Shown in pieces: positions 23,146 to 53,134 of a stretch of DNA of 64,000 nt. Position 1 is the first letter of the stretch. Each line of letters begins with the position of its first letter. This stretch comes from an uncultured Actinomycetota bacterium (GTDB lineage: Bacteria > Actinomycetota > Actinomycetes > Actinomycetales > CAWJMD01): NCBI GenBank assembly GCA_963845675.1, contig CAWJSX010000003.1:88807-152806 (forward strand), in the 5' to 3' direction. Both the position numbers and the translations under genes were made by a program. The notes below the pieces were generated by a model, which saw nothing but the letters and a program-made list of their open reading frames with translations, was not told the origin of the DNA and ran no database searches.

Positions 23146-23855
23146 GCGCTCTCCTGGATGCCGTCGGGACCCGGCGCTCGGGCTGGGCCCGGGTGGGCCA
23201 CCTGGACCATCGTGCTGGTCCCGCGGTGCACCAGCACACCCCGGCCCGGCAGACGGACCTCCCGGCGAGGCAGACGCACCCCCAGCACGTCGCCGTCGGC
23301 AGGTCCGGCTGGGCCGAGGACGAGCCCGGTCCCCGGCCGTCGCAGGTCGACGCACAGCCCGTGGAAGCGGGACAGCAGGTCCGGCGTGCACCCTGCCGCC
23401 ACCACGGTCGGGGCTCCCGCTCCCCGACGGTCGCCGTCGGCCTCGTCGGCCTCGTCGGACGTGTCGGTCGAGTCGGCGACGAGCCGGACCAGGAGGTCTC
23501 CCACGGGGGTCCCGTCCAGACCCTCGACGTCGTCCACCAGCAGCAGCGGCGCCTGCCCCGCTCCCGGGCCGGCCGCGAGGAGTCGCTGCAGGGCCGACGC
23601 CGCGGCGGCGCCGACGCCCGGCACGACGTGCAGGTCGCCCCCGTCCAGGGACGACAGCGGGGAGTGCCCCGGCGTCACGGCGACGACCCGGCGGCCCGCC
23701 CGCGCAGCAGCACGGCCGAGGACGACCAGGGCGGTCGAGCGACCCGACCCGCGGTGCCCCGCCACCAGGTGCACCCGGCTGGCCGGGTCAAGCCCCACGG
23801 GCTGGACCGTGTCGCCGCCCAGACCCAGCGGGAGCACGGTCGGCTCACCGGTCAC
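23142..23855 (-). CDS. FtsK/SpoIIIE-type P-loop domain protein (third, degenerate ATPase domain of the upstream EssC-like protein)
   Basis: ORF 23142..23855 has Walker A HLVAGHRGSGRST and Walker B-like PLLLVDDVE. Its GTG start overlaps the upstream TGA (GTGA at 23852..23855). It is either a genuinely split domain or a further frame break. Confidence 0.6.
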   Translation of the reverse strand: MTGEPTVLPLGLGGDTVQPVGLDPASRVHLVAGHRGSGRSTALVVLGRAAARAGRRVVAVTPGHSPLSSLDGGDLHVVPGVGAAAASALQRLLAAGPGAGQAPLLLVDDVEGLDGTPVGDLLVRLVADSTDTSDEADEADGDRRGAGAPTVVAAGCTPDLLSRFHGLCVDLRRPGTGLVLGPAGPADGDVLGVRLPRREVRLPGRGVLVHRGTSTMVQVAHPGPARAPGPDGIQESA

Positions 23856-26800: not shown

Positions 26801-27599
26801 TCATCAGCGGGGAGAACAGGCCGATCAGCAAGGCGTAGGGGGAGCGCAGCACCAGCGCCAGCGGCACCGCGAGCAGAAGCGGGAGCACCAGCGCGACGAG
26901 GGGGATCCGGGCTGTGCTCCGAGGCGGCGGCGCAGCAGGAAGGTGGACGGCGACAGGCTGTGGCGCCTGCTGTGTGCGGGGGGAACGGTTGACCTGGACC
27001 ACCCCGTCCTGGACGTGCGCCGCCGCGGCCCGGCCGTCGGGGACCCGCAGCGTCAGCGTCGTGGACCCGAGCAGCACGCGTGACGCCTCGGTCACCGGCG
27101 TCGACGACCCGGTGAGCCAGGCTCCGTCGACCCGTGTGCCGTTCGTCGACCCCAGGTCGCGCACCGTGACCCCGCCCGACGTGACCTCCAGCTCGGCGTG
27201 CACACGGGAGATGTCCGGGTCGTCCACGGTCAGGTCCGCCTGTGCGGACCGCCCGATCCGGTGGGTTCCAGGGGCCAGCCGGTGCACCTGCCCGGCGTCG
27301 GGTCCGCCGACCGTGTGCAGCTCGAGGAAGCCCCCGGTCGCGCCCCTCGCGCGTCCCGGGGCACCGCCGGGGAGCCCGACGCTGAGGAGGGCACCGTCCA
27401 GCAGGGGTCCCGACCCCAGGAGGACGCCGTCCTCGAGCTCGTCGCCGTCGACGTGCAGCGGCGTGCCCGCCCCGGCGCCGACCGCGCCGAGCAGGTGATC
27501 GCGCACGTCGGCCACCGTCGTGCCGGGGCAGGCCTCCACGACCACGTCGACCAGCGCACCGGCGCGCGCCGTGTCCAGCACGCTCAGCCTCAGCCTCAC
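23852..27599 (-). pseudogene. FHA-domain FtsK/SpoIIIE-family ATPase (EssC/EccC-like: FHA - 2 TM - ATPase D1 - ATPase D2), three frame breaks
   Basis: GTG 27599. FHA domain: HRIGRSAQADLTVDDPDISRVHAELEV...VRDLGSTNGTRVDG. TM pair: IPLVALVLPLLLAVPLALVL / LLIGLFSPLMILGNLL. D1 Walker A is VLVAGTTGAGKSELL with LVLVIDEF. D2 is GVVGASRSGRTT. Frames change near 26290, 26045 and 26005 (ORFs 25392..27791, 25936..26298, 23852..25975). Confidence 0.8.
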
Positions 27600-27838
27600 C
27601 CGTGCACCGCCCCCGCCACCGCGCCATCGTGGCAGCGGGCACGGACGGCGCGCCGGAGTCGTCAGCGTCCCTGTGGACAACTCGGACGGCATCGCGGAAC
27701 ACGGGAGGTCCACGGTCCGTCCAGCGGGCGGACGGTGGGCAGCACGACGGCCCCTCGATAGCATCGGCCTGTGGGCGCCGGTCGTCCGCATCCAGCAACG
27801 GGGGCGGGAACGCCTCCTCGACGAAGTGGAGTGCCAAC

Positions 27839-28420
27839 GTGGGAGTGAGCCTCAGCAAGGGCGGGAACGTCTCGCTGACGAAGGAGGCTGGCGCCGCCGG
27901 TCTGAGCGCCGTGACCGTGGGGCTGGGCTGGGACGTGCGCAGCACCACCGGCGTCGACTTCGACCTGGACGCGTCGGCGATCGGGTGCGACGCCAACGGC
28001 AAGGTCGTGTCCGACCAGCACTTCGTGTTCTTCAACAACCTGCGCAGCCCGGACGGCTCGATCGAGCACACCGGCGACAACCTCACCGGCGAGGGCGAGG
28101 GCGACGACGAGCAGATCAAGGTCAACGTGTCCGGCGCGCCGGCCGAGATCGACAAGATCGTCTTCCCGGTCTCGATCTACGACGCCGACAACCGGCAGCA
28201 GAACTTCGGCCAGGTGCGGAACGCGTTCATCCGCGTCGTGAACCAGGTCAACGGGTCCGAGCTCGCCCGGTACGACCTCACCGAGGACGCGTCGACCGAG
28301 ACCGCGATGGTCTTCGGCGAGCTGTACCGGTCGGGCGGCGAGTGGAAGTTCCGGGCCGTCGGCCAGGGCTACGCGACCGGGCTGTCGGGCATCGCGCGCG
28401 ACTTCGGCGTGAACGTCTGA
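27839..28420 (+). CDS. terD: TerD-family stress (tellurite-resistance type) protein
   Basis: GTG 27839 within ORF 27602..28420: (M)[17 protein letters not shown]...[23 protein letters not shown]...[19 protein letters not shown]...[10 protein letters not shown]...[20 protein letters not shown]. This is the canonical TerD sequence pattern including the Ca-binding GDN/DDE motifs. Confidence 0.9.
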
Positions 28421-28501
28421 CGGTCACCACCGCCTGACACGCACGAGGGCCCGGCCACCACCTGGTGGCCGGGCCCTCGTGCGTCCGGGGTGCCTGGCGT
28501 C

Positions 28502-29670
28502 CTAGACCGTGACGTGCGGGTGGTCGTGCGTCGGGCTCTCGCGGTCGAGACGCTTGTTGCGCATCACGGAGTTGACGAACGAGGCGACGATGAAGGCCAC
28601 GCCGATGAGGCCGGTGACGACCTCTGGGATCTCGTACTTGACCGTGATCAGGAGGATCACGGCCAGCGCGCCGATGGCCCAGTGGGCGCCGTGCTCCAGG
28701 TAGATGTACTCGTCCAGCGTGCCCTTGCGCACGAGGTAGACGGTCAGCGACCGGATCCAGAAGGCACCGACGCCCAGGCCGATCATGATGATGAAGATGT
28801 CCTGGGTGATCGCGAAGGCCCCGATCACGCCGTCGAAGGAGAAGGACGCGTCCAGGACCTCGAGGTAGAGGAACAGGAAGAGGCCCGCCCGGCCGGTGGC
28901 CAGGGCGGCCGTACTCGGACCCGACCGACCGTGGCGGTGGCGGTGGCGGTCGCGGTGGCGGTCGCGGCGGCGGGCGCCGGCTGCTCCAGGGCACCCGCCG
29001 CCTCGTCGTCCACCTCGCCCTCGTCGTGACCGGCCTCGAACAGGTTGCCCAGCCCGTTGACGAGCAGGTAGGTGACGACGCCGAGCACGCCGGAGATCAG
29101 GACCTGGCCGAAGTGCTCCTCGTCCGCGAAGGCCATGGCCGAGGCCGTGAGGGCGGTCAGCGCGATGACGACGGCCAGCTGGTCGAGCTTGCCGATCCGG
29201 TTGAGCGGCTCCTCGAGCCAGTTGAGCCAGTGGATGTCGCGGTCCTCGAAGAGCCACTCCAGGAACAGCATCATGAGGAACATGCCGCCGAAGCCGGCGA
29301 TGGCCGGGTGGGCGTCGTTGACGAGGTTGGCGTAGGTGCCGGGGGTCTCGATGTCGCCGCCCGCGATGGCGAGGTCGACCGCGGCGACGGGCGAGATCCC
29401 CGCCGTCGTCGCCACCAGCAGCACCGGGAAGACCAGCCGCATGCCGAAGACGGCGATGAGGATGCCGATGGTGAGGAAGATCTTCTGCCAGAACTCGCTC
29501 ATCCGCTTCAGGACCTTGGCGTTGACCACGGCGTTGTCGAACGAGAGCGAGACCTCGAGGACGATGAGGACGAAGACGACCAGGAAGCCGTTGAGGTCGA
29601 AGAGCAGGAACGAGGCGACGAGCGCGATCAGCGTCGTGGCGCCGGAGAAGCCGAAGGTTCGCAGGAGCAC
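28502..29670 (-). pseudogene. DUF475 (TerC-related) integral membrane protein, one frame break at a hexanucleotide repeat
   Basis: N-half in ORF 28825..29670 (LEVSLSFDNAVVNAKVL). C-half in ORF 28502..30367 (LEVLDASFSFDGVIGAFAIT...). The duplicated DUF475 signature is present. The junction ...ATATATATATAT / GRSGPSTAALATGRAGLFLFLYLEV lies at about 28915-28935. Confidence 0.8.
28931..28972. repeat. imperfect hexanucleotide repeat (GTSGCG)x7 inside the DUF475 gene
   Basis: Read directly: gtggcg gtggcg gtggcg gtcgcg gtggcg gtcgcg gcggcg. It encodes (Ala-Thr)n on the minus strand and abuts the frame break. Confidence 0.9.
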
Positions 29671-29775
29671 CGTCTGGTCCTTGTCGTCGTGTGGGTCGTC
29701 GTGCGGGTCGTCGTCCGGGGGCAGGCTCCCGGGGTCGTACGGAGGCCGGGCACGCGGCCCGGCTCCGGGGTGAGC

Positions 29776-30596
29776 CTACCCGCGGGGTCCGACCGCGCCG
29801 ACCGAGCGCAGCAGCCAGCGCACCAGCTCCTCGCCGCCGAGGACACCTGGGGCTCCGGTCACGTGGAGCCCCGGTGTCGTCCACGCCGCGGACGCGAGCT
29901 CGCCCTGGGCGGGCCGCACCGCCAGGTCGGCGACCTCGAGCAGCTCGCCGTCGAGCAGGGAGTCCCCGGCGGCGACCAGCGTGCCGGCGCCGGTCCGCCG
30001 CTGCACCTCCCGGGCAGCGGCCGACTTCGTCAGGGGACGGGGGACGCAGTACACCTTGCGGCCCTGCAGCGACAGGCCCCAGCCGCGCTCGTCGCACCAC
30101 GCGGCGAGGTCGTCCAGCCAGCCGGCCGGGACGCCGTCGCGGTCCACCACGCTGTAGACGAAGAGGTCGGACGCGACGCGCAACGACTGCACGAACGGCC
30201 CGCGACCCGCTCGACGTGACGGTGCACCTCGTCGACCGGGGCGCATCCGTCGAGCGACCCCTTGACGTGCACGGACCAGTCCTCGTCGACCACGCCGTCG
30301 ACCAGCAGGTGGCCGCCGTTGCTGGCGATGGCGTACCGCGCCGGGGTCGGGCCGGGCAGGTGGACACGGGCCAGCTGTGCCGGCGTGCGGGTCGTGGTCG
30401 GCACCAGGACCGTGGCCGCGGCCAGCTCCACCAGCAGGTCGGCGGCCGTCTCGGTGACGAACGACAGCGGCGCGCCCCGGTAGACCTCGACGCACAGCAG
30501 CCGGGGCGCGTCGACGTCCTCGCAGGGCAGCAGCAGGGCGCCGGGGGAGTAGATCACCGTGCGGTCGAGGTCGACGCAGGTGACGTGCCCGCTCAC
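29776..30596 (-). pseudogene. HAD-family phosphatase of the ter-associated biosynthetic operon, one frame break
   Basis: GTG 30596 overlaps the upstream stop (GTGA). HAD motif I is VTCVDLDRTVIY (ORF 30030..30716 frame). C-terminal motifs are GTLVAAGDSLLDGELLEVADLAV (ORF 29776..30495 frame). The junction ...HVERVAG / PFVQSLRVASDLF lies near 30200. Confidence 0.7.
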
Positions 30597-31722
30597 CCCT
30601 CGCCGCCGGACCGCGGCTCGATCAGCCCGACACAGCTGTAGGACAGGTCGGCGACCGCCTCGACCGGCACGCCGCGCTGGCGCGCGAGGTGCAGCACGTG
30701 CGGCAGCTCGGCCCACGCGCTGGGTCGCACCAGCACGCGCTCGGGCACGCGACGCAGGAGCACCCGGGTGGTCTCGCCGACGCCGGGCTTGACGAGGTTG
30801 ACCTCACCGATCCCGTACCGCTCGCTGATGCGCTCGACGGCGGCCCAGCCCTCCCACGTCGGCTGCCGGTCGACCGGCGGCGACCGCGGGCCACGTGGCC
30901 CCGACCTCGGGTCCGCACGGCGGCGAAGTACTCGCTGACCGCGTCGAGATAGGCGTTCGAGACGTCGCTCGCCGGCCAGGTCGGAGTAGAACTTGGCACC
31001 GTGGAAGTCGTGCGGGCCGATCAGGGAGTCGTTCAGCACGGTGCGCGAGACCAGGCCGGAGACGGTCGAGTTCAGGCACGCGGACGGGATGAGGAAGTCG
31101 TCGCGCGTCCCGAAGCGTCCGCACGCAGCGACCGGGATCGGCGAGCACCGCGAGGTCGTCGACGAAGACGACGCCGGTTGTCCGTGCGTGCTCGGCCAGC
31201 GCGGCGGTCAGCTCGCGGGCGATGGCGCCCTTGCCCGTCCACCCGTCCACGAAGACGACGTCGGACGGATCGTGGTGCGTGCTGAGGTACCGCAGCGCGA
31301 CCTGGTCGATGCCGCGGCCGCGGACGATGGACAGCGTGTAGTGGGCGGGCTCGATGCCGTGGGTCTGCACGAGCCACCGGCGGATGAGGATCCCGACCGG
31401 CGTCCCGGCGCGCGCGAGGGACGCGAGCGCCAGGTCCGGTCCGCGCTCCGCCAGCAGGATCTCGCCGACGACGCCGACAGCGACCGCGATGCGGCGCGCT
31501 GCGTCGGCGACGGCGACGTGGAAGAGACGCTGGTACTCGGCGTCGGGCTGTACTCCTGCGGCAGCGACTCCGCGTAGTGGGCGCGTCCGGACTGGATCGC
31601 CGCCTCGCGCTCGGCGGTCGGGGCCTCGAGCCGGGCGTGCGGAGACGTCCTTGAGCAGCCACGTCACCTCATGGGCGGCGTACGAGCCGAACGCCGGACC
31701 GTGCAGGGGCTGCGGGAGGCTC
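30593..31722 (-). pseudogene. StiP-like protein (PRTase-associated, C-terminal PELOTA-like RNA-binding domain), about five frame breaks
   Basis: Fragments are spread over three frames: PLHGPAFGSYAAHEVTWLLKDVS; ARLEAPTAEREAAIQSGRAHYAESL; EYQRLFHVAVADAARRIAVAVG...FVDGWTGKGAI...; NDSLIGPHDFHGAKFYSDLAG; DVSNAYLDAVSEYF; TWEGWAAVERISERYGIGEVNLVKPGVGETTRVLLRRVP.... Breaks lie near 31640, 31555, 31120, 30965 and 30900. The start position is uncertain. Confidence 0.65.
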
Positions 31723-33145
31723 GTGCGCGGACGGGCGGGACGACGGTCCGGTGACGGGGAGCACGGCCAGCACGACCTCCGGGGTGGCGGTGTCGAGGGC
31801 GGCGACGAGCCCTCCGGGTGACGCCAGCGCGGAGGTGTCCGCGGGGGCGTCGGTGACGACGAGGACCCGGTCGAACCTCGCGCCCTCGACCGGAGACGTT
31901 GTAGGCGAAGCGGTCTCCGTCCGGTTCGTCGTGGGCCGCGAAGCGCACGACCGAGCGGAGCGCGTACCCCTCGTCGTCGACGGCGACGGCCGGCGACCGG
32001 GTGGTGGTGGAGAACCGCACGTCGAGGTCGGGACGTGCGTCCGCCCACGCCTCGGCGAGGTGGAGGGGCGCCGCCATCAGCTCCTCGGTGCCGAGCACGA
32101 GCACCCGGCTGCCCGCGGCGACGGGGGGACCGCCAGCGTCGAGACGGGCCGCGACCTCGGGAACCGTGGCGCTCCAGGCCCGGTGGACCTCGGGGCCGAC
32201 GCCGTGGCGTCCCCCCTCGGGCAGGCCGGGTGGCCAGCCGACGTCGATGCGGTGGACCCGGCCGGACGATGCCGTTGCAGCAGAGGGCTTCCCGCCGGAT
32301 GCCACCTCAGCCACCAGGTCGGCGCCACGACGTAGGGCGTCCGGCGGGAGGTCGACGGTGCCCCTGACGAGCGACACGACGTCGACGTGGGCGCCGAGAG
32401 CCGCCACGGCGGTCACGAGGCGCTGGCCGTCCTCCTCCGAGCGCAGGTCGACGAGCGTCGCGACGACGTAGCGACGGCGCGGGGACACCTCGTGCAGGGC
32501 CGAGATGGTGTTGAGCACCGTCGAGCCGGTGGAGAGCTCGTCGTCCACGAGGACCAGGGGGCGGTCGCGCGTCACCAGAGCCGGGTCGGCGGGCAGCAGC
32601 AGGTGGCTCGTCGCGTGGGAGTGCGACTCCTCGAACGCCCCGAGCACGTCCACACCCGGCACCGGGCGTCGCGTCGAGTGCAGGTAGTCGGCGCGGCCGA
32701 GGGCAACGGCCACGTCGTGCCCCAGCGCCGTGGCGGTCTCCGCGTAGCCGAGGACGGCCGCGTCGACGCCGCCGCCCCCGGTCGCCGCGACCACCGTGTC
32801 GCGCAGCGCGACGGCAGCACCGGGCTCGTCGTCCAGCGCTCGGCGGACGAGCCTGCCGAGGTGCGTGCGTGCGGCGTCGTCCCCGAGGGAGAAGTCGTCG
32901 TCCAGCACCTCGCGGACGAGGGCGCCGAGCAGCAGCGCCGCACCGCGCACCAGCCTGGGGTCTGTCGGCACGTGCTTGGCCAGCACTCGCGAGACGAGCA
33001 GGTGCGCCCGGCGAGGGTTGCGCCGGACCGCGAGCCCGACGAGGTCGTCCAGGGCGAGGCCGACGGGGGAGACGGTCGTGCGCAGCCGCACGTCCAGCCT
33101 GTCGGCGACCCAGGTGCCCGTCCAGGTCCTCGTTCCGGCCGTCAC
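31669..33145 (-). pseudogene. phosphoribosyltransferase-domain protein (ter-associated PRTase with C-terminal TRSP-like domain), at least one frame break
   Basis: GTG 33145 overlaps the HpcH stop (GTGA). The PRPP-binding loop is RPLVLVDDELSTGSTVLN in ORF 31664..33766. After ...DRFAYNVS the sensible continuation (VEGARFDRVLVVTDAPADTSALASPGGLVAALDTATPEVVLAVLPVTGP) is in another frame, with the break near 31885. The 3-prime end and the boundary with StiP are unresolved. Confidence 0.7.
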
Positions 33146-34323
33146 GAGAGCAGGCTCGCGGCGAGGACCTCGACGAACGTGATGTCGGGCTTCGAGACGC
33201 CGAACACCCTGGCGCGCAGGTGAGTTCGCTGGGCCCAGGCCAGGTGCGGCTTCGACTCGTTCATCTTGTTGCCGTACATCGAGGCGGAGACACCGCCCTG
33301 TCCGGCGGTTCCGAGGATGTCGAGGGCGTCCTCGTACTCCTCGTGCGTGACCACCTGCAGCGCGTGGACCGCGCTGACGTGCGTCGGGTGGATCACCGTC
33401 TTGCCGGTCAGGCCGTTGGCCTTGTCGAGCTCCACCTCGCGGATCAGACCGTCCATGTCGCGCGAGATCAGCTGCGCCCGTAGCTCGGGGGCCTTGTGCT
33501 GCTCGAACAACGTCTGGCGCAGGCGTGGCTTGAAGACGCGTTCGCCGCCGCTGAAGTACTCCCAGACCGGACCGGTGATGACGAACCCGGTGCCGTCCGC
33601 GCGGCCCAGACGGTTGACGATGTCGGTGATCACCGCGGCGACGACGCGGACGTCGTAGACGGTGAGCTCTCGAGACCGCCGCAGGCCGTAGACGGCGGAG
33701 AGGTCCGTCGCGCCGATGCGCACGGCGAGCACGTGCGAGCGCCGGCTGTTCAGCACCGACTGGCACCAGGAGAGCGCCTGCATGCGCGTCTCCTCGTGGG
33801 TGATCTGGCGCGACTCCATCACCGGCATCGCGAACAGCCGGTGCCCGTACCGGGACGAGGCCTCCGCGATGGAGTCCAGGTACGCCAGCCCGTTCTCCGG
33901 TCCGAACTTCGGGAGCACGAACCCGGTCAGCGAGGCGACCGCGGGGCCGAGTCTCTCGACGAGGTCGAGGACCTGCTCCGGGCGGCGGACCCGTACGAAC
34001 AGCAGTGGCGCCGGCGAGGTCGCGTCACGGTCTGCGCGTAGGGGGCCGTGCAGGTCGGTGATGGCCTCGACCACGTTCTTCTCGCCGAGCTCGACCTCGG
34101 TGTCGGCGATCGCGTCCTCGAGGCAGAGCACCATCGAGACGGTCCCGCGGGCCGCCTGAGTGCGCACCCGAGCGGCGAGGTCTGGGTGGGTGGCGGGCGT
34201 GTACAGACTGGCCCCGAGGGCGGTCGCCAGCAGCGGGGCGTCGGCGTCTGCGCCGAAGGGTTCAGGCTGCTCCGCGAAGATGCGTGCCCTGGTGGGCGCG
34301 CTGAGGTGGGCGAAGTGCTGCAT
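33142..34323 (-). CDS. HpcH/HpaI aldolase / citrate-lyase beta-like C-C lyase (ter-associated)
   Basis: ORF 33142..34410 trimmed to ATG 34323 (MQHFAHLSAPTRARIF...). Intact at 393 aa. TIM-barrel lyase motifs are MVLCLEDAIAD, VRIGATDLS and GKTVIHPTHV. It is the first gene of the GTGA-coupled operon. Confidence 0.8.
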   Translation of the reverse strand: MQHFAHLSAPTRARIFAEQPEPFGADADAPLLATALGASLYTPATHPDLAARVRTQAARGTVSMVLCLEDAIADTEVELGEKNVVEAITDLHGPLRADRDATSPAPLLFVRVRRPEQVLDLVERLGPAVASLTGFVLPKFGPENGLAYLDSIAEASSRYGHRLFAMPVMESRQITHEETRMQALSWCQSVLNSRRSHVLAVRIGATDLSAVYGLRRSRELTVYDVRVVAAVITDIVNRLGRADGTGFVITGPVWEYFSGGERVFKPRLRQTLFEQHKAPELRAQLISRDMDGLIREVELDKANGLTGKTVIHPTHVSAVHALQVVTHEEYEDALDILGTAGQGGVSASMYGNKMNESKPHLAWAQRTHLRARVFGVSKPDITFVEVLAASLLS

Positions 34324-34535
34324 GGGGACTCCCGGAGTGGCCGAGACCGTCCGCACGTGCCCGCGCGGAGGACGGTCGCATTCTGCCTCAGCCGGAGAGC
34401 GGCGGCACACCGCGGTGCCGCAGAACCGTCCGAAGCGGACGCCCTACCCGGTCCGCGCGGCGGAGGTGCGACGCCTACCCGTGCACACGAGCAGCAGGTC
34501 CTTCGCCGGACGGTGCAGCGGCTGGCCGGCCGGGC

Positions 34536-37345
34536 TCATCGGTCCCCGGCGCTCGACGGGTGGGTCCCCAGGGTGCTGCTGACGTCGCCGAGGCGCGCCA
34601 CGAGGGCGGCCCTCGTCCGCACGTCGAGCTTGTCGAACGCGCGGGCGAGGTGCGACTCCACGGTCTTGGGGCTCAGGTAGAGCCGTGCGGCGATGTCCTT
34701 GTTCGTGAGGCCCTGCGCGACGAGCTCGGCCACGTCGCGCTCGCGAGCGCTGAGAGAGGGGACGCCCTGGGCGCCAGGGGACGTGCGTCCGCCGCCACGT
34801 CCGATCCGGCGACCCAGGCGTCGGAGCTCGCGGACCGCCTCGTCGCGCACGCCCGTCGCCCCCGCCTCGGCCGCCGTCGTGGCTGCCGACTCCAGGTGGG
34901 CCACGGCCGTCTCACGGTCGGTCCCGACGACCGCGCGACCGGCCACGACGAGGGAGCGGGCGACCTCCAGCCTGGCCCCCACGGACTCCGCGCGGTCGGC
35001 AGCCGAGACGGCGAGGTGGTGCGCCGCCTCGCGATCACCGTCCGCGAGGGCCACCAGGGCGTGGGCCCGGGTCGCCGCGGCCCACGGACCAGCCAGACCG
35101 ATCCCCGCAGCGTCCACGGCACGTCGGGCGTGCTCACGGGCCGCCTCGGAGTCGCCCACGTCGAGATCCGCCTGGACGAGCCACGGCGCCCAGCGACAGA
35201 CCCAGCCGGGGTCGATGTCGTAGTCGGACAGGCCTCGTCGTCCGCCCTCGCTGTCACCCCTCGCCACCAGGACGGCGCCCGTGCACGGCTCTCGAGACGG
35301 GCACGTGCCAGGAGGCGTCGACGCGCCCCGCCAGCGTCAGGCTCTCGCTGACGGTGGAGAGCGCGTCGTCCAGCCGACCTGCCTCCAGCAGCGACCACGA
35401 GCGCATCCACAGGGCCCACTGCACGGCCTGGTCGTTGCCGGTGACGCGCGACGCCTGCTCCGCCAGGTCCGCGGCCTCCACGCACCGCGTGATGCGTCCG
35501 AGCAGCCCCAGCGACAGCACCACGGCCAGCTCGAGCGCCACCGCGGCCGACCCGTTGCCGCTCCGCCGTGCAGCGGCCGCCGCGCGCTCGCCGGTGGACA
35601 GGGCGTCGTCCAGCCGTTCGAGCGCGATCGAGACTCCACGGGACGGCCACCAGGAGGCCGGAGTGGGCGACCAGCTCGGCGTCCGTGGCCCCTTCGACGG
35701 CGGTCACGGACCTGTCGGCGCCCGACGCGGCCTGCTGGGTCCGTCCGTCGAACGCGTCCCCGACAGCGGCCAGCGCGGCGGCCGCACCGTGGACGAGCGG
35801 GGGTGCGCCGTCGACGGCCAGCGTCGCGCGTGCCCAACGCGTCATGTCCGCCAGGTCGGTCGTCTCGTAGGCCGACAACGCGAGGTCCACCATCAGGCGG
35901 ACCGCGGCGGGGTCCCCCGCCGTGAGCTCGTCCACCGCCCTGCGGAGACGGCGCCGAGCAGCCCGATGGCGACCGAGAAGGCGCTCGGCCCCGGCGGCCG
36001 ACGCGACGAGTGGCACGGAGGTCGCCCCGGACCCGACCGGTCGGCCGACGCCCGCCGTGGCATGGTCGACGACCCGCAGGGCCTCCTCGAGGTCTCCTGC
36101 CTCGACGAGCGTCTCCGCCAGCTGCACGTGATCGTCCCCGGCTGCGGGGTCCACCCGGTCCGCGACGAGGAGCCAGCCTGCGGCCATGCTCGGTGGCCTG
36201 GGACGGACCTCGGCCGCGGCCCTGCGCAGCGTCCGCGCCGAGTCGACGTCCCCCGGGGCGGTCACCAGCGCGAGGTGTCGCGCGACGGCGGCAGCCGGCG
36301 CGCCCGAGCGGGACAGCTGGGCGGCGGCGCGATCGTGCCCCTCCAGTCGCTCGCTCGGCGAGAGCGTCTCGTACACAGCGGTTCTCACGACCGGGTGACG
36401 GAACGAGAACTGCCGGGCATCCAGCCCGGGCGAGAGGAAGGAGTGCTCGACGAGCTCGTCCAGCGCGGGCAACGCCTCCTCGAGCCCGAGACCGGCCGTC
36501 GAGGCGGCGCGAGGCCGAGGTCGAACGGGTCACCCAGGACGGCTCCTGCCTTGAGCAGGGCGCGTCCAGCCTCGGGAACCGCCTCGACCCGGATCACGTA
36601 CCAGCGCGCGGACCCCACCGGGGACGCCCTCGGCGGACCCCGCCCGGACCAGCTCCTCGATCAGCATCGGGTTGCCTCCGGCCTCCCGGTAGAGCCGGTC
36701 ACGGTCGCCGGCGTCCGCGAAGGAGGCCATCAACGGCTCCGCGTCGTCGCGCGACAGGGGGCCGACGTCCATCACGGTGCCCACACCCTGGGCCCGCATG
36801 GCCACGATCAGCCGGTCCGCAGCACCACCGGGTCTCAGCCCGAGGGCCAGGAGGTGAGGAGCGTGAGGCGGACGTCGGACCAGGTGCTCCAGGAGCTCCA
36901 GGGTGGCCGGGTCGGCCCAGTGAACGTCGTCGACGACGAGAGCGACCGGCGACCGCGCGGCGAGGTGCTGCAGGTGGTCCACCACGGACCGGTAGACGCG
37001 CCACCGCGTGGCTGCCGGGGCCGGCTCGGGACCGTCCGCCTCCAGTGAGGACTGGTCCACCGTGTCCGCCAAGGCCTCCAGCACCGCGGCCAGTGGCACG
37101 TCGCTCTCGAGCTCGGTCGCGCGTCCGCGCAGGACCGTGAAGCCCCGTGCCGCGGCCGCGTCACCGAGCACCGTGAGCAGGGACGTCTTGCCGATGCCCG
37201 GCTCTCCCCGGACGACCAGCCGGCGTCGCCGTCCGCGGGCCACCGCGTCGACGAGCGTGTGCACGACGCGCAGGTCGTCGGAGCGCCCCACCATGCCCTG
37301 CTCGGACACCGGCCCCTCCTCGCCCGTCCACCCGACCGCCAGCAT
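34536..37345 (-). pseudogene. LAL-type (large ATP-binding LuxR-family) transcriptional regulator, three frame breaks
   Basis: N-terminal AAA/NB-ARC-like domain with Walker A VVRGEPGIGKTSLL and VALVVDDVHWAD (ORF 36530..37444). Central helical repeats are in ORF 34673..36472 and 35254..35541. The C-terminal LuxR HTH is LSARERDVAELVAQGLTNKDIAARLYLSPKTVESHL (ORF 34536..35267). Breaks lie near 36500, 35620 and 35270. Confidence 0.8.
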
Positions 37346-37461
37346 GCCCGTCCCCCATCCGGTCTGACCAGGGATCAGGGAAACGCCGGATGTTCCAGCG
37401 CGGCCTGGACGGCAGTGTCGTGCACGCCGAACCGGCACAACCACATCCGCTGGAGGACCCC

Positions 37462-37929
37462 ATGAACGCCGTCACGACCACCGCCACCGCGCCCGGTCTC
37501 GCGTCCGCGCGACGCCACAACCTCTCCGTCTGGACCGAGTCGGCGCACCACATGTACGCCGGCAGGGTCGACGAGTTCCTCGCCTGCTGGACCTCGGACG
37601 CGACCTACACGGTCGCCTACCCCGTGGCGGGTCTGCCGCCGTCGGTCACGGGCCACGAGGCCCTCCGGGCGGTGTTCGGCGGGCTCACCAGCCTGGCCCG
37701 TGAGATCCACGTGCACGACGTGCGCTTCCACCAGACGGACGACCCGGACGTGGTGTTCGTCGAGGAGCGGATGATCGCGGTGCTGCACAACGGCTACCGC
37801 TACGACAACCGCCTGATCCTCCGCGCGACGTTTCGCGACGGCCTCATCCACGAGGTCTTCGAGTACTACGGCCAGGTCGCGCACCAGGAGCTCGTTCGTC
37901 AGGCCGGGCTCGTGCCCGACGCGTCATGA
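37462..37929 (+). CDS. NTF2-like (SnoaL/PhzA-B-like) protein
   Basis: ORF 37390..37929 trimmed to ATG 37462. Small alpha+beta cone pattern (VDEFLACWTSDATYTVAYP...FVEERMIAVLHNGYRYDNRLILRATFRDGLIHEVFEYY). Family call is tentative. Confidence 0.6.
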   Translation: MNAVTTTATAPGLASARRHNLSVWTESAHHMYAGRVDEFLACWTSDATYTVAYPVAGLPPSVTGHEALRAVFGGLTSLAREIHVHDVRFHQTDDPDVVFVEERMIAVLHNGYRYDNRLILRATFRDGLIHEVFEYYGQVAHQELVRQAGLVPDAS

Positions 37930-38636
37930 CCGCGCTCCACGGGCCAGGGCTCACGGACGTGCGCATGATGCTGGTGGCCCACACCAGCTTCCGTCGCGAG
38001 CTCGCGCTGAGCCCTTCCGCCGTCAGGGGGGTGGGCGACGGTGACCGGCGTCGCGCGTCCGTCGTGGCCGACCACGTCGACCTCTTCCTGTCCCTGCTGC
38101 ACCACCACCACACCATCGAGGACGAGCTGCTGTGGGACACGTTGCTCGAGCGGGTACCCGGCGAGCTGGCGCCCCTGGTGCGGACGATGGAGAGCCAGCA
38201 CGAGGCGGTGGCCGCGTTGCTCGAGCGGGCCGGGCGCCGGCTCGCCGCCTGGCGCGAGACGGCCGACGTCGCGGACGGCGAGGCCCTGGCCACGGTGCTG
38301 GGCTCCCTCGTCGTGGCCCTGATGGAGCACCTCGACTGCGAGGAGCGGGACCTGCTGCCGATCATGGCCCGCCACATCACGGCGCAGGAGTGGGAGGTGT
38401 TCACCGCCCGGGGGATGGAGTCGATCCCTCGCTCGATGATGTTCCTCGGCCTCGGGATGATGCTCTACGAGGGCGACCCCGAGGTCATCGCGGGCGAGAT
38501 GGCCGCTGTCCCAGCGCCCCTCAGGGTGGTGCTGCCGACTCTGGGACGCAGGGCCTTCCGCCGGTACGCGCGCCGGGTGCACGGTACGCCGACCCCGCGG
38601 ACCGGGACGGAGCTCAGGTCGTCGATGGCGGTCTGA
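37926..38636 (+). CDS. hemerythrin (HHE cation-binding) domain protein
   Basis: ATG 37926 overlaps the upstream stop (ATGA). Motifs are MMLVAHTSFRREL, LLHHHHTIEDELLW, MESQHEAV and LMEHLDCEERDLLP, matching the His/Glu ligand spacing of hemerythrin-like domains. Confidence 0.7.
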   Translation: MTALHGPGLTDVRMMLVAHTSFRRELALSPSAVRGVGDGDRRRASVVADHVDLFLSLLHHHHTIEDELLWDTLLERVPGELAPLVRTMESQHEAVAALLERAGRRLAAWRETADVADGEALATVLGSLVVALMEHLDCEERDLLPIMARHITAQEWEVFTARGMESIPRSMMFLGLGMMLYEGDPEVIAGEMAAVPAPLRVVLPTLGRRAFRRYARRVHGTPTPRTGTELRSSMAV

Positions 38637-38694
38637 GCGACGACGCGACGTGGCCGTCCCCGGACGGGGTCCGCCACGTCGTGTCTCCGTCAGG

Positions 38695-39660
38695 TCAGCG
38701 CGCGCGTCCTGCGGGCACCGTCCGCCCCGAGGCCCACGGCAGGTGCCAGCCGTAGGCCGCGGCGACCTCGGACTGCTGACCCACGAGGTACTCGGCCTCA
38801 CGGCGCAGTACGAGGGTCCCGCCCACTCGGTGGATCGACGCCAGAGCGCACGTCCCCGTGCCCGCGGGCGCGTGCGGGAAGCGCATGTCCACGGTGACGC
38901 CGTCCCGGAGCTCGGCGGTCAGGCCGATCCCCAACGCGTCCCACTCCGGCTGCCCCGAGACGGCGTACGCGAAGACCAGCATCCGCTTCAGCAGGCCGAT
39001 GTGCTTGAGGCTCGCAGTGAGGGTCTCGCCGTCGGTCTCGCTGCGGGGTCCCAGCCGCAGGACCGTCGACCCGTGCGAGCGCGCAGCGTCGGCGCCCCCT
39101 CCGAGCGACTGGATCACGCCCGTGACGCCGTCGTTCATCTCCCACAGGCAGCCCAGGTGCACGTCCGTGCTCCGTCGCAGACCCGCTGCGGCACTGCGCG
39201 GGTCGGTCGGGAGCGTGGACCAGTAGAGCGTCAGGTGCAGGGCCCCGCTGCTGGCCTGCTCGTCGCCGATCCGCACCGCCGGAGTGGTCTCGGACAGCAT
39301 GGTCCGACCCCGTAGCACCGTCACCTCGCGACTGAGCACCGGTGTCGTCACCGGCGCCTCACCCGGTCGATCGGTGCGAACGCCGTGGGGGGACAGGTCG
39401 AGCGAGAGGTTCCCCGTCCGCACCAGCTCGGGGGAGGTGCGTCGGACCGGCCGGCGGCGGCGGAGGAAGTCGAGGGACGGCGTCTCAGGTGCGCGCACGG
39501 GGCGGCGCGTCGACGCAGCAGCGGGGGCAGGCGGACGTGTCGACGCGGGAGGGGGCACGGGGGCCGCCGTCGGCGCAGGCACCGGCTCGCGCGACGCCGC
39601 CGGTCGTCGCGATCGCCGACGGATGAAGCCGAGGTCCGGCGGGTCGGGCGGGAGCGTCAC
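38695..39660 (-). CDS. TerD-domain protein, TerA-like (divergent) with Pro/Arg-rich N-terminal region
   Basis: Intact 321-aa ORF. The C-terminal 200 aa show a TerD-fold-like pattern (VHLGCLWEMNDGVTGVIQSLGG...ETLTASLKHIGLLKRMLVFAYAVSG...). It overlaps the downstream terD start by 4 nt. Assignment by pattern and context. Confidence 0.55.
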   Translation of the reverse strand: MTLPPDPPDLGFIRRRSRRPAASREPVPAPTAAPVPPPASTRPPAPAAASTRRPVRAPETPSLDFLRRRRPVRRTSPELVRTGNLSLDLSPHGVRTDRPGEAPVTTPVLSREVTVLRGRTMLSETTPAVRIGDEQASSGALHLTLYWSTLPTDPRSAAAGLRRSTDVHLGCLWEMNDGVTGVIQSLGGGADAARSHGSTVLRLGPRSETDGETLTASLKHIGLLKRMLVFAYAVSGQPEWDALGIGLTAELRDGVTVDMRFPHAPAGTGTCALASIHRVGGTLVLRREAEYLVGQQSEVAAAYGWHLPWASGRTVPAGRAR

Positions 39661-40235
39661 CGGCCCAGGTCCACGCCGTAGTCCTGCGCGATGCCCTCCA
39701 GGCCCTCCGCCCAGCCCTGGCCGACGGCGCGGAACTTCCAGCCGGCACGGTGCCGGTACAGCTCGCCGAAGACCAGCGCGGTCTCGCCGGCGCAGTCGTG
39801 GGACAGGTCGTAGCGCGCAAGCTCCGTCCCGCGGTCGAGGTCCGTGACCCGGATGTAGGCGCCCTTGACCTGCTGGAACGTCTGACGACGTGCCTGGGCC
39901 TGGTAGATCGACACGGCGAAGACGATCTTGTCGACGTAGTCAGGCACCCGCGTCAGGTCGACCTCGACCTCCTCGTCGTCGCCCTCGCCGGAGCCGGTCA
40001 CGTGGTCGCCGGAGTGCGTGACCGCGACGTCCGGGGAGGCCAGCTGGTTGTAGAAGACGAAGTGGGCGTCGTTGGGCACCCTGCCGTCGGCGCCCACCAG
40101 CAGCGCGGACGCGTCAAGGTCGAACGGGTCCCGACCGGTGCTCGGTGCCCAGCCCAGCCCGACGAGCACCCGCCGGAGCTCCGGGTTGGCTTCGGTGAGC
40201 CCGATGTTGGCCCCCCGGGCGAGCGCTGTCGACAT
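39657..40235 (-). CDS. terD: TerD-family stress protein (second copy)
   Basis: Intact 192-aa ORF: LARGANIGLTE...VGLGWAPSTGRDPFDLDASALLVG...GDHVTGSGEGDDEEVEVDL...IVFAVSIYQA...[20 protein letters not shown]. Confidence 0.9.
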   Translation of the reverse strand: MSTALARGANIGLTEANPELRRVLVGLGWAPSTGRDPFDLDASALLVGADGRVPNDAHFVFYNQLASPDVAVTHSGDHVTGSGEGDDEEVEVDLTRVPDYVDKIVFAVSIYQAQARRQTFQQVKGAYIRVTDLDRGTELARYDLSHDCAGETALVFGELYRHRAGWKFRAVGQGWAEGLEGIAQDYGVDLGR

Positions 40236-40291
40236 GCGCCCAGGCTAACCAGTCGCCCTCGTCGCACGGTCGGGTAGGCGAGACTGCTGAC

Positions 40292-41226
40292 ATGACGACG
40301 TCGCGCGACGAGCGCCCCCGCGTGGCCGTGGCCACCTACACCTCGCTGCCGCACCTCGACGACGACGGTCCCCGGCTGCTCGAGGCGCTGTCCGGAGCCG
40401 GTGTGGACGCCGAACCCGCGATCTGGGACGACGCCCGCGTCGACTGGCACGCCTACGACCTCGTGCTGCTCCGGACGACCTGGGACTACATGCTGCGCCG
40501 CGCCGAGTTCATCTCGTGGGTCCGGTCCCTGCGCGAGGTCGCGAACCCGGCGGACGTCGTCGAGTGGAACACCGACAAGCACTACCTCGACCAGCTGCGG
40601 TCCGCCGGTCTCCCCGTCGTCGAGACGGTGTTCCTGGAGCCGGGGAGCGAGTGGGTCGAGCTGGACCTCGACTGCGCCGACGTCGTCGTCAAGCCGGTCA
40701 TCAGCGCCGGTGCGACGCACACGGGACGGTTCCCGCTCGGCGACCCCGCCGCCCGCGCCCTCGCCGAGCGGCTGCTGGGCGAGCAGCGGTCCGTGATGGT
40801 GCAGCCGTACGTCGACGCCGTCGACACCGAGGGGGAGACCGCCCTGCTCTACCTCGGCGGACGGTTCTCCCACGCGGTCCGCAAGGGCGCGCTGCTCGAG
40901 GGCCACGGGGAGCTGCCGGTCTACAGCGAGCACACCTACACCGAGGTCATCACGCCCACGCAGGCCACCTCGACCAGCGTCCCTGGCCGAGCGGGTCCTC
41001 GCCGCGGTGCCCGGCGGCGCCGACCGACTCACGTACGCGCGCGTCGACCTGGTCACCGGGCCCGCAGGGGGAACCCCTGCTGCTGGAGATCGAGCTGACC
41101 GAGCCGTCGCTCTTCCTCGAGCACGCCGACGACGCGTCCGTCGCGCGCCTGGCAGACGACGTGGCCGGCCGGGCCCGCGAGGCACGGGAGAGGGTCGCCC
41201 GGCGTCGGGCCCGCGAGATGCACTGA
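40292..41226 (+). pseudogene. ATP-grasp domain protein (ter-associated), two frame breaks
   Basis: ORF 40292..41098 (RVAVATYTSLPHLDDDGPRLLEAL...VVVKPVISAGATHTGRF...VMVQPYVDAVDTEGETALLYLGGRFSHAV). It continues as LAERVLAAVPGGADRLTYARVDLVTGPAG in a second frame and as EPLLLEIELTEPSLFLEH... in the frame of ORF 40516..41226. Breaks lie near 40980 and 41068. Confidence 0.7.
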
Positions 41227-41228
41227 CG

Positions 41229-41769
41229 CTAGAGGTCGAGGTCGGACCGCGTGAACTTCGTCGCCAGGAACTGGCCCTGGTTCGTCAGCTGCTGGGCGTC
41301 GCCGGCGTAGATCGCGGTCGCGTACTCCTGCGCACCCTCGCCCAGCAGCCTCAGCTGCTCGAGCAGGTCCTCGGCGGGAGTTCGTCCGAGCCGGTTGCGG
41401 TGCGTCGCAGCGAAGTCCGGTGGAAGGGCCAGGAAGGTGTCCACGGTCGTCGGAAGGTAGTCGCGCACCATCGACCGGACCGGGATCATCTCCGTCTCGG
41501 TCGCCGGGTTGGCGCGCAGGTACCGCAGCAGCGGCCGCAGGACGTCCTCGACCTCGCGGACGGCGGGCACGCCGCCTTCGGGCATCCGGTCGCCGCCCCG
41601 GTTGACCCGCCGCACCAGGTCGGTCAGCTCGGCGCTCGAGCACCTGCGGCCTCCGGCGCCGAGGGCGTCGAGGCTGGCGGCGTCGGTGGCGACGGAGGGC
41701 GGCGGGCGGCGGCGCCGCCTGCTGCGGCGGCTCGTCGCGCCCGAACAGCCCGGACCAGAACGACGACAT
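41229..41769 (-). pseudogene. hypothetical protein translationally coupled to telA, one frame break
   Basis: ATG 41769 overlaps the corrected telA stop (TGATG): MSSFWSGLFGRDEPPQQAAPPPAA.... It shifts near 41695 into the frame of ORF 41229..41615 (...AELTDLVRRVNRGGDRMPEGGVPAVREVEDVLRPLLRYL...). No family recognised. Confidence 0.45.
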
Positions 41770-43020
41770 CAGACCCCGGCAGCCGGTGGACCGCCCTCGC
41801 TCTGGCTCGCCGCACGCGACCGCTCCAGGTAGGGCTTGGCCCGCTCGACCTGCTGCTCGAGCGCGCCGACGGTGGCGGCCATGCTGGTGACGGCCTGCGC
41901 CTTGTAGGTGTCGATCGCGTCCATCGTCGCGAAGACGTTGTCGAAGGCACTTCTGCAGCGACTCGATGCTCACGGCCGAGCTCGCGGCCTGCTGGTGGAT
42001 CGCCGTGCCCTGCTGCTGCAGCATCGCCGACGTCGACTCGATCATGCTGCTGGTCGTCGTGTTCAGCGCGTTGATCTGGTCGAGCACCAGCTTCTGGTTG
42101 GCCAGCGCCTGGGCGACGATCACGGCCGTCCGCAGTGCCGCCACCGTGGTGGTCTGCGCGCGGTCGACCCCCTTGATCAGCTCGAGGTTGTTCTTCTTGA
42201 CCAGGTCGAGCGCGAGGTATCCCTGCACCGCCACGGCCATCTGCGTGAGGATGTCCTGCCGGCGCTGGCGGATCGGGAACAGCGCGTCGGAGGTGATGGT
42301 GTTCGCCTCCTCCGTCCGTCCGGCCGCCTGGAGCTCGCTGACCTTCGCCTGGGTCGCCTGGTCGAGCGCGGCGGCGAGGGTCGCGTACTCCGACAGCTTG
42401 CCCATCAGGGCCCACATGTTGGCCCGCTCGCTCTCGATCGCCGCGTTGTCCTTGCGCAGCTCATCCTGTCCGGAGGCGAGCGCCTTGATGATCGCGTCCA
42501 GCTGGGACTGCGCCGACTGGTACCGGTCGAAGTAGGCGCGCAGCTTGTCGCCGCCGGGCAGGAAGCGGAAGATCCTGCGGACCCCGCCGAGGTCGGAGTG
42601 GCCCGGGTCGAGCTCGGTCACCGTGTGGCGCAGGTCGCTCAGGCTGGTCGCGACCTTCGCCTGGGCGTCCCCGCCCTGTCCCCTGGCGCCGGCCAGCGCC
42701 GCGGCGGGCCGCTCCAGCATCCGGTTCGAGACCTGGCTCGACTCCCGTACCTCCCGCTCGCCCATGGAGGTGATCGAGGCGATCTTCCGGCTGAACTCGG
42801 GGCTGCGGACGTCCACCGACACGAGGTCGGCGACGAACGCGGCCGCCTTCTGCTGAAGCGCCGTCTGCTGCTCGGGCGCGACCGGGATCATCCCCGCGGC
42901 CTGCTCGTCCTGGACGACGGGCACCGGCGCCGGTGGGGTCAGCACGAGGTCGGTGCTCGTGGCGCTCGCGGTCGTCGTCGGTGCCGCCAGCGGCGTGCTG
43001 AGGTTCAGCGGGTCGGACAT
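41769..43020 (-). pseudogene. telA: TelA/KlaA-family toxic anion resistance protein, one frame break
   Basis: The N-terminal 355 aa of ORF 41053..43020 (…SPEFSRKIASITSMGEREVRESSQVSNRMLERP...LRKDNAAIESERANMWALMGKLSEY...) have the TelA coiled-coil pattern. After ...AVSIESLQK the frame shifts near 41955 to AFDNVFATMDAIDTYKAQAVTSMAATVGALEQQVERAKPYLER..., with the stop at 41769..41771. Confidence 0.8.
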
Positions 43021-50918: not shown

Positions 50919-50922
50919 CCCG

Positions 50923-51348: not shown

Positions 51349-51368
51349 CCTCCCGTCCCACCCCGTTT

Positions 51369-51417
51369 GGGCGTGTTCTCGGGGCCCCAAATGCGCCGGG
51401 ACACCGGGAACACGCCC
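51369..51417 (+). terminator. hairpin with perfect 10-bp stem (GGGCGTGTTC ... GAACACGCCC) downstream of the PPOX gene
   Basis: Arms at 51369..51378 and 51408..51417 are exact reverse complements. The 29-nt interior holds a GGGGCCCC palindrome. It lies 20 nt after the TAG at 51346..51348 in a comparatively AT-richer 177-bp spacer. There is no clear U-tract. Confidence 0.35.
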
Positions 51418-51525
51418 CTTCGCGCCCGGTTTGAGATGTCGATCTGACCGATTCGTAGACCCCTCGTGTGAGCCTGGGTACGTTGGCAGGCGCTCCGTTC
51501 CCCCCAATGTGACAAAGGAGTCGCA

Positions 51526-53134
<1,609 letters not shown>

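Follow-up and report, generated by a model that had tools for sequence, protein, structure and literature searches.

A two-armed Ter stress supercluster with a fused phosphoribosyltransferase–StiP gene in an uncultured Actinomycetota bacterium

Described Ter loci and the locus under study

Ter gene clusters accompanied by a set of putative biosynthetic genes were described in silico in 2012, and a locus belonging to this known and widespread system was analysed here in a 64 000-nt stretch of DNA from an uncultured Actinomycetota bacterium (contig CAWJSX010000003.1 of assembly GCA_963845675.1, positions 88 807 to 152 806), referred to hereafter as the window. The locus occupies positions 27839 to 43020 of the window and consists of two arms, the first carrying the putative biosynthetic genes together with terD1 and a TerC-related gene, the second carrying terD2, a TerA-like gene, an ATP-grasp gene and TelA. 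We consider it probable that the region is an ordinary, functional Ter stress supercluster, for which a mechanism of the 2012 type is assumed, and that the approximately 14 breaks in its reading frames are errors of the source assembly. The comparative-genomics model of 2012 (Anantharaman, Iyer and Aravind) is relayed in three later papers (PMC7824862, PMC8115787, PMC11994780), and recent papers still refer to a 'putative biosynthetic cluster'. The preliminary description of this DNA had called the product of the module undefined, in agreement with the searchable full-text literature, in which no paper defines a substrate or product.

The ter locus of IncHI2 plasmids (L019) allows a comparison family by family. 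In plasmids of the IncHI2 and pK2044 type the module is ordered ATPgrasp_Ter, PRTase_2/TRSP, HAD-like, StiP/PELOTA and C-C lyase, where PRTase denotes phosphoribosyltransferase. The window shares with it a C-C_Bond_Lyase, PRTase_2 with TRSP, StiP with PELOTA_1 and a HAD-type phosphatase, as well as the linkage to TerD- and TerC-type genes; four of the five canonical families are present at full length after frame correction, supporting the earlier identification of a 'Ter-associated biosynthetic module'. The two loci differ in that the lyase gene is last on the plasmid and first in the window, that PRTase and StiP are fused in the window, and that the lyases are 29–30% identical; the window has DUF475 rather than TerC proper, and its region is without ATPgrasp_Ter, DUF4236/TerW and the TerY/TerX vWA-kinase-phosphatase triad. 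Bacillus altitudinis 3W19, compared by its description in PMC11994780, has a ter/yceC-H type cluster in which terD paralogues, a TerC-family gene and TelA/YceH adjoin a module with the gene order of the window (HpcH, PRTase, StiP, HAD), whereas PRTase and StiP are separate genes there and TerB and YceG are present. The StiP domain of the window belongs to PF11202, a family named after StiP of Acinetobacter baylyi. The latter is reported as a stand-alone protease in PMC11994780, whereas StiP in the window is fused to the PRTase and makes up the C-terminal half of the protein. PMC11994780 cites Reichert et al. (2013) for stationary-phase, morphology and tellurite phenotypes and states that the protease is needed for normal morphology and tellurite resistance, and the claim that no phenotype was known for StiP therefore had to be withdrawn.

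With a G+C content of 70–76% throughout the window, a plain listing of open reading frames (ORFs) was unusable (128 ORFs of at least 60 amino acids in 21 kb at 73% G+C, mostly in spurious frames). Genes were located by filtering on G+C content at third codon positions (GC3), a seven-state codon-position hidden Markov model, frame-aware protein-to-DNA alignment and comparison with related loci. Scanning the lyase protein against one genome per species gave eight loci, with amino-acid identities to the lyase of the window of 84% (L001), 81% (L002), 68% (L003), 54–60% (Actinomadura) and 51–52% (Frankia). L001 and L002 are Microflora Danica metagenome-assembled genomes (MAGs) labelled 'uncultured Actinomycetota', L003 is MAG MFD01275.bin.2.2, L012 and L013 are the Streptomyces and Cellulomonas ter clusters, and L014/L015 are two overlapping contigs. 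Pfam, NCBIfam and PDB searches together with motif inspection confirmed the families first assigned to the locus by eye, namely TerD (twice), DUF475, C-C lyase, PRTase_2/TRSP, StiP/PELOTA, HAD-type phosphatase, TelA and an ATP-grasp fold.

The putative biosynthetic arm

The first arm contains the following features.

27839..28420, plus strand: terD1, TerD-domain protein of 193 amino acids, intact (Pfam TerD, E 1.7e-83)
28439..28484, no strand assigned: perfect 22-nt inverted repeat with 2 nt between its arms, 100% complementary, lying between the stops of terD1 and DUF475
28502..29670, minus strand: DUF475 (TerC-related) integral membrane protein, one frame break near 28941, start uncertain
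29776..30596, minus strand: HAD-type (class IIB-like) phosphatase of about 270 amino acids, one frame break near 30197, GTG start within a GTGA overlap
30593..33145, minus strand: fused protein with PRTase_2, TRSP, StiP (PRTase-like) and PELOTA_1 domains, 847 amino acids when corrected, eight single-base indels
33142..34410, minus strand: CitE/HpcH-like TIM-barrel C-C lyase, intact (Pfam C-C_Bond_Lyase PF15617, E 7e-118, profile positions 2–320 of 320)

These genes are predicted to form one operon, reading from the lyase through the PRTase_2-TRSP-StiP-PELOTA fusion and the HAD phosphatase to DUF475 and ending at a hairpin shared with terD1. The junctions between lyase and fusion and between fusion and HAD gene are coupled by GTGA overlaps, both of which proved exact as first read: the lyase stop overlaps the PRTase GTG at 33145–33142 (ctcTCGTGAcgg) and the stop of the fusion overlaps the HAD start at 30596–30593 (gagGGGTGAgcg). 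The lyase is likely to start at ATG 34332 (MQHFAHL) rather than at GTG 34410, because the resulting length of 396 amino acids fits that of homologues (386–390 amino acids). It gave weak partial matches to the RipC/CitE models of NCBIfam, and a PDB sequence search detected no relative of either the lyase or the fused PRTase-StiP protein.

PRTase and StiP/PELOTA had been described as separate genes; once indels are allowed, they are one continuous ORF running from 33145 to 30596 with no stop. Frame-aware alignment placed the indels near 31891, 31740, 31640, 31549, 31115, 30970, 30912 and 30872; the frame of the first segment is also that of the last, and the fused protein aligns end to end with that of L001 (687 of 859 residues identical, 0 stops). 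A single ORF spans PRTase and StiP/PELOTA in L001 and L002, and all four domains were found in every one of the best 120 homologues listed (746–982 amino acids), which include proteins from Streptomyces, Cellulomonas, Actinomadura, Rhodococcus and Thermomonospora; more than 100 of those listed measure 810–980 amino acids. A programmed frameshift linking two separate genes was also considered and ruled out, as the orthologues are uninterrupted single ORFs. All four domains of the corrected fusion were recognised by Pfam: PRTase_2 (E 1.5e-61, profile positions 1–188 of 188), TRSP (E 2.8e-32), StiP PF11202 (E 1.5e-100, positions 1–244 of 245) and PELOTA_1 (E 4.5e-33). Motifs of the phosphoribosyl pyrophosphate (PRPP) loop are found in both the PRTase_2 (VLVDDELSTGST) and the StiP (VFVDGWTGKGAI) domain.

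The HAD protein had no Pfam match. Its corrected sequence contains the motifs DLDRT (DxDxT) and GDSLLD (GDxxxD), matches the trehalose phosphatase 6cj0 in the PDB (E 2e-5) and is 83% identical to that of L002, and the gene occupies a conserved place after StiP. The corrected DUF475 protein matches the Pfam profile over positions 1–292 of 293 (E 1e-126), with TerC matched as well, and shares 359 of 408 residues (88%) with L001 across one indel and no stops; its start may be GTG 29670 or lie upstream, as far as about 29730. The two halves of DUF475 are joined by an (Ala-Thr)n linker encoded by a tandem hexamer repeat, (GTGGCG)x7, at 28931–28973. The sole frame break of the gene falls within this repeat and may be either real slippage or an assembly error.

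The TerD proteins of the window match PDB 3ibz and 2kxt; terD1 matches 3ibz, a TerD-like protein of Streptomyces, with an E-value of 9e-101 and is 98% identical to its L001 orthologue. Structural work on TerD of Klebsiella pneumoniae reportedly defined an acidic Ca2+-site motif, GDxxTGxGxGDDE, and an acidic motif is visible in both terD1 and terD2 (GDHVTGSGEGDDE in terD2). It had been stated that terD1 diverges from the operon. The two are arranged tail to tail, with stops at 28420 and, for DUF475, 28502–28504, and the gene from which terD1 does diverge is an FHA-FtsK/SpoIIIE-like gene. The inverted repeat at 28439–28484 is probably a bidirectional terminator hairpin, as predicted from its position and complementarity.

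The second arm and conservation of the two-arm order

The second arm contains the following features.

38695..39660, minus strand: 'TerA-like' protein, intact, whose C-terminal domain (about 200 amino acids) has a putative divergent TerD fold; its GTG start overlaps the terD2 stop
39657..40235, minus strand: terD2, TerD-domain protein of 192 amino acids, intact (Pfam TerD, E 1.4e-75; 91% identical to L001)
40292..41226, plus strand: DcsG-like ATP-grasp protein of about 310 amino acids, two frame breaks, near 40979 and 41058
41229..41771, minus strand: small ORF of about 180 amino acids, one frame break near 41631, conserved C-terminal domain without known family
41769..43020, minus strand: TelA (toxic anion resistance family), 415 amino acids when corrected, one indel near 41949

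The 4-nt overlap reported for the TerA-like gene and terD2 is an exact GTGA at 39660–39657 (ggcCGGTGAcgc). The N-terminus of the TerA-like protein is disordered and Pro/Arg-rich, with the motif PDLGF(I/L)RRR occurring twice and Pro/Ala-rich spacers between. Longer homologues keep PDLGF(I/L)RRR(P), and in some of them an 'LDL/LDLS' element recurs many times; that these longer homologues share the N-terminal repeat motif supports the GTG start at 39660. No Pfam family matched the protein, and a search of 5.8 billion proteins yielded only 31 homologues, some of them named TerA by JGI; in L012 and L013 the homologue lies just upstream of the lyase. In an AlphaFold2 model most of the C-terminal domain had a predicted local distance difference test score (pLDDT) above 90, and the sole Foldseek match at E ≤ 0.001 was 9a6r_B (SCP2; E 3.5e-7, TM-score 0.70), which we take to be YceC of Bacillus subtilis, a TerD-family protein. 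A profile comparison with TerD by hhalign was weak (E 8e-4, 154 co-linear columns, probability 24%), and the acidic motif is degenerate.

Corrected TelA matches Pfam PF05816 over profile positions 2–332 of 332 (E 1.7e-88) and is 97% identical to L001. Its coupling to the small ORF, noted previously, takes the form TGATG, in which one A serves both the TGA of TelA and the ATG of the small ORF. Relatives of the small ORF comprise 521 representative clusters at E ≤ 1e-3, and the homologue of Cellulomonas (L013) likewise follows TelA (34% identity, E 4e-19). An N-terminal PspC (phage-shock) domain was present in 5 of 46 sampled members of the family, which suggests an envelope-stress role. The idea, prompted by Bacillus, that the small ORF is an XpaC-type neighbour of TelA was discarded, no member having matched such a Pfam family.

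The order of the two arms is syntenic in L001, L002, L003 and L014/L015 and largely so in L012 and L013. L001 and L002 have intact copies of both arms, and parts of each are seen in L014/L015. The two-arm arrangement is not due to chance. Linkage of the module to TerD and TerC-type genes is kept in L001–L003, L012 and L013, with terD2 at a distance of 4.3 kb in the window. The comparison with Streptomyces and Cellulomonas proposed in the preliminary description bore out the assignment, the module, DUF475, TerD and TerA-like being common to both. Streptomyces has the order TerD, TerD, DUF475, TerA-like, TerD, lyase, fusion, HAD, and Cellulomonas the order TelA, small ORF, TerD, TerA-like, lyase, fused PRTase-StiP, HAD in one array. 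Like the window, both have the fused PRTase_2-TRSP-StiP-PELOTA gene (57–58% identity) between lyase and HAD gene, a TerA-like gene upstream of the lyase, DUF475 and several TerD genes, and Cellulomonas also has TelA with its coupled small ORF. In contrast to the window, both are without the ATP-grasp, LAL regulator, SnoaL and hemerythrin genes, and DUF475 does not close the operon but is located in a separate TerD-DUF475 group; the TelA-to-HAD stretch of Cellulomonas is a single co-directional array beside this group, with no genes inserted between the 'arms'. The gene content, family membership, translational coupling and conserved synteny of the locus were established in this analysis.

Function of the module

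In the proposed mechanism, the PRTase domain would carry out PRPP-dependent phosphoribosylation of a small base-like acceptor, the carbon skeleton of which would be made or trimmed by the lyase. The HAD phosphatase would then take off the 5'-phosphate, leaving a nucleoside-like compound that may act with, or be moved by, the co-transcribed TerC-like membrane protein, and the Ca2+-binding TerD proteins and TelA may represent the membrane-proximal part of a response to envelope, metal or oxidant stress. We infer every chemical step of this module, as well as its link to the membrane proteins. Some considerations weigh against it: the chemistry stands as a model only, regulators such as PurR and PyrR, which were among the fold matches described below, also have PRTase folds, and StiP is a reported protease according to PMC11994780, an activity which, if real, would be at odds with a purely biosynthetic role.

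Along the same lines, the module could be mainly a sensor or regulator, with PRPP or a nucleotide alarmone bound by the PRTase folds, RNA bound by PELOTA and StiP active as a protease; it would then govern the stress response, no diffusible nucleoside being made. An AlphaFold2 model of a fused orthologue (P0152, pLDDT 82) matched the folds of type I PRTases only (adenine and xanthine PRTases, PurR and PyrR; the aligned domain is not indicated), and the regulators among these, PurR (bound to cPRPP or ppGpp) and PyrR, are what such a role would lead one to expect. Pfam describes PELOTA_1 as an RNA-binding domain, and StiP is called a cysteine protease in both Pfam and NCBI, a protease activity and a tellurite phenotype being cited for it in A. 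baylyi (PMC11994780); a cysteine of P0152, C697 in the motif IPSACLNSTVSG, is invariant in 40 homologues. However, the top 23 fold matches were catalytic or PRTase-related, mostly adenine PRTases (E 4e-5), and no protease was found among the top 50 fold matches of the model. Both PRPP-loop motifs are kept in the fused protein. Across carriers ranging from actinobacteria to plasmids of enterobacteria, a C-C lyase and a HAD phosphatase are constant companions, a pattern seen more typically in metabolic pathways. A mainly regulatory module thus appears unlikely to us, and a biosynthetic one is preferred.

The locus had been said to hold the full set of module genes, which is not the case: the canonical module has ATPgrasp_Ter (PF15632) as its fifth enzyme, which the locus lacks, and the neighbouring ATP-grasp is DcsG-like and belongs to another family. 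This ATP-grasp gene does diverge from terD2, as first noted, starting at 40292 on the plus strand, and it converges on the small ORF with 2 nt between the stops. Its protein had no match to PF15632 even at E ≤ 10, whereas the ATP-grasp of IncHI2, used as a positive control, matched at 1.5e-37; BLASTP between the two gave a non-significant E-value of 0.10. The nearest characterised relative is DcsG (PDB 6jil, E 5e-42), an enzyme that catalyses the ring closure of O-ureido-D-serine. The match to the NCBIfam model of D-cycloserine synthetase, NF058666, is full length (237 bits, E 2e-70) but below the equivalog cut-off of 360, and the gene map shows no dcs genes near the ATP-grasp gene of the window. 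The domain PF27100 (DcsG_N) is present on homologues of the protein, and this family is widespread in actinobacteria in unrelated contexts.

Homologues with 52–54% identity were found in Micromonospora, Kineococcus (two paralogues) and two metagenomic contigs without ter neighbours. In L014/L015, a 53%-identical ATP-grasp is found in exactly the arrangement of the window, the composite order being TelA, small ORF, ATP-grasp on the other strand, TerD, TerA-like and lyase. Because homologues occur elsewhere without ter genes while L014/L015 keep the arrangement, the ATP-grasp is a clade-specific but stably embedded neighbour and not the canonical fifth enzyme. A stronger interpretation would be that a DcsG-type ATP-grasp was recruited into the Ter cluster of the window, L001–L003 and L014/L015 by non-orthologous displacement of the Ter ATP-grasp. 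The gene is wedged between terD and the partner gene of TelA, a position kept down to 53% identity, but we regard displacement as quite unlikely.

The cluster might instead be primarily an anti-phage or anti-plasmid defence system with the nucleoside-like product as an infection signal. A scan against PADLOC-DB 2.0 gave no match for 9 of 10 proteins and a single marginal one for TelA (PDC-M14B, E 8e-4), there are no mobile-element genes nearby, and the locus, which is chromosomal and syntenic, has housekeeping-type genes on either side rather than being part of a defence island, all of which makes a primary role in defence very unlikely compared with the stress-related role preferred here.

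Origin of the frame breaks

Frame-aware alignment against the intact orthologues of L001 and L002 agreed with the earlier count of 7 of 11 genes with frame breaks (counting PRTase and StiP separately): DUF475 has one indel, the HAD gene one, PRTase and StiP together eight, the ATP-grasp gene two, the small ORF one and TelA one, whereas terD1, terD2, lyase and TerA-like have none. A listing of blastn gaps against L001/L002 was too noisy at about 80% identity, and only sites backed by protein-guided alignment were used. Single extra bases in a non-homopolymer context account for 11 of the 14 events.

Breaks of this kind are found across the window, with same-strand frame switches about once per kb over all 64 kb. 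A GH1 beta-glucosidase is split at 8695/8696 into parts matching Pfam profile positions 35–209 and 211–447, PPK2 is split at about 55025 (profile positions 3–82, then 84–228), and an NAD-glutamate dehydrogenase is split at about 17898 into its catalytic domain and GDH_C. In the ter genes, correction left 0 in-frame stops, and identity to L001 is 79–97% over the full length, across the breaks. Compensating breaks restore the frame within 30–90 nt (31640/31549 and 30970/30912/30872), and GC3 periodicity is undiminished on both sides of the breaks.

Verification at the level of reads, which the preliminary description had called for, was obtained in part. Short-read contigs cover three break sites, and the frame was intact at each of them: contig X5 does not have the extra base at 31889, and contig X3 has two bases inserted at 40971–40979 and one left out at 41058, the frame being restored in each case. 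These contigs come from other soil metagenomes and are 95–99% identical to the window; they are not the reads behind the assembly, and the read runs compared, which are from other samples, share at most 15% of sampled words with it, so the check extends to 3 of about 14 sites and to the reads of other samples. Contigs X2 and X5, from two runs, have one extra A after 41227, another probable indel of the window.

The frame breaks of the ter genes are most probably sequencing or assembly errors and not gene decay, because they occur throughout the window, leave no stops and do not diminish identity, and because the frame is restored in the short-read contigs of relatives. Some findings run counter to this. 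The read check reaches 3 of about 14 sites, with no contig over 30197, 31115–31740, 41631 or 41949; the eight indels in about 1 kb of the StiP region are denser than the window average, for which we have no explanation; and the hexamer repeat that holds the DUF475 break could have undergone real slippage. That the indels are real, so that the Ter cluster and much of the genome would be decaying into pseudogenes and the pathway would not work in this strain, is highly improbable: although the breaks were already in the source assembly (the called ATP-grasp protein of the window, P0033, is a truncated form of 268 amino acids on a contig of 461,375 nt), cluster within about 1 kb of StiP, have a counterpart in the PRTase and DUF475 genes of the related MAG L003 and are mostly without covering reads, the same kind of break affects unrelated genes over all 64 kb, including NAD-glutamate dehydrogenase and PPK2, nonsense codons are absent from the corrected ter genes with identity undiminished past the breaks, several breaks form compensating pairs with GC3 periodicity kept, and the frame is intact at all three sites under short-read contigs. 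In L003, the breaks in PRTase-StiP and DUF475 lie at 11182–15697, whereas L001 and L002 carry intact copies of these genes; the MAG collection from which L003 comes seems to contain indel-rich assemblies repeatedly.

Frame switches also split genes for an ABC transporter, a PdtaS-like kinase and Tad/Flp pilus components, and further sites were seen at about 47457 and at 18975–20589, 50577–53045 and 59793–64000. The contig looks unpolished; pseudogene calls made on it are unsafe, and polishing is needed before anything is inferred from its annotation.

Genes between and beside the arms

Three genes separate the two arms in the window.

34536..37374, minus strand: LAL-type regulator (AAA_16 ATPase to GerE/LuxR helix-turn-helix) of about 930 amino acids, about five frame breaks, identified by Pfam on fragments
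37390–37929, plus strand: SnoaL_2-like protein (Pfam)
37926–38636, plus strand: hemerythrin HHE protein (Pfam), overlapping the SnoaL_2-like gene by 4 nt

The LAL regulator lies directly upstream of the lyase and is co-directional with it; it was found only in the window and L001 (584 of 929 residues identical, no stops in frame-aware alignment) and is absent from L002, L003, L012 and L013. It could be a lineage-specific regulator of the pathway. The SnoaL_2-like and hemerythrin genes, which have orthologues in L001 only, are lineage-specific filling between the arms. Other genes occupy the inter-arm position in L002, and the arms are adjacent in L003 and L014.

Upstream of terD1, a non-coding gap of 234 nt (27601–27834) precedes a large gene on the minus strand (23626–27697) for a protein with an FHA domain and an FtsK/SpoIIIE-type (EccC-like) ATPase, which has several frame breaks and is syntenic in L001. 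Beyond it, at 21512–23150 on the minus strand, a SigB-like sigma factor, an anti-sigma-factor-like protein and a GNAT acetyltransferase follow in a row; judged by eye from their translations, these appear to be ordinary stress-regulation genes. An Rfam scan of the whole window, covering for example the Mn2+ yybP-ykoY riboswitch that may precede a TerC-like gene, gave no match, and scans for sigma-70 promoters and T-tract terminators gave nothing meaningful, as expected for an actinobacterium.

Implications for the Ter-associated module

The Ter system is among the most widespread bacterial stress and resistance loci, and the question of what its module makes dates from 2012. The locus had been put forward as the best candidate in the window for an undescribed pathway, a view that does not hold given that the module occurs in thousands of genomes, including those of culturable Streptomyces, Cellulomonas and Bacillus, and on enterobacterial plasmids. 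The copy in the window, from an uncultured organism and in an error-rich assembly, is a poor entry point to the chemistry of the module; tractable, intact equivalents are available in Streptomyces, Cellulomonas and Bacillus and on plasmids of Klebsiella and Salmonella, where the question is better attacked.

In actinobacteria, fusion of PRTase_2/TRSP with StiP/PELOTA is common, an argument for the two acting together. The ATP-grasp step is not universal, being absent from the Streptomyces and Cellulomonas clusters and having an unrelated ATP-grasp in its place here. If this ATP-grasp were nevertheless part of the pathway, formation of the Ter metabolite would have to include an ATP-dependent step that forms an amide or closes a ring, and the ring-closure chemistry of DcsG would be the first concrete clue to the product of the module; if a DcsG-type enzyme was indeed recruited, the LAL regulator of the window and L001 would be a pathway-specific switch. 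The protein with a putative divergent TerD fold and the small protein coupled to TelA are conserved, hitherto undescribed companions of the module.

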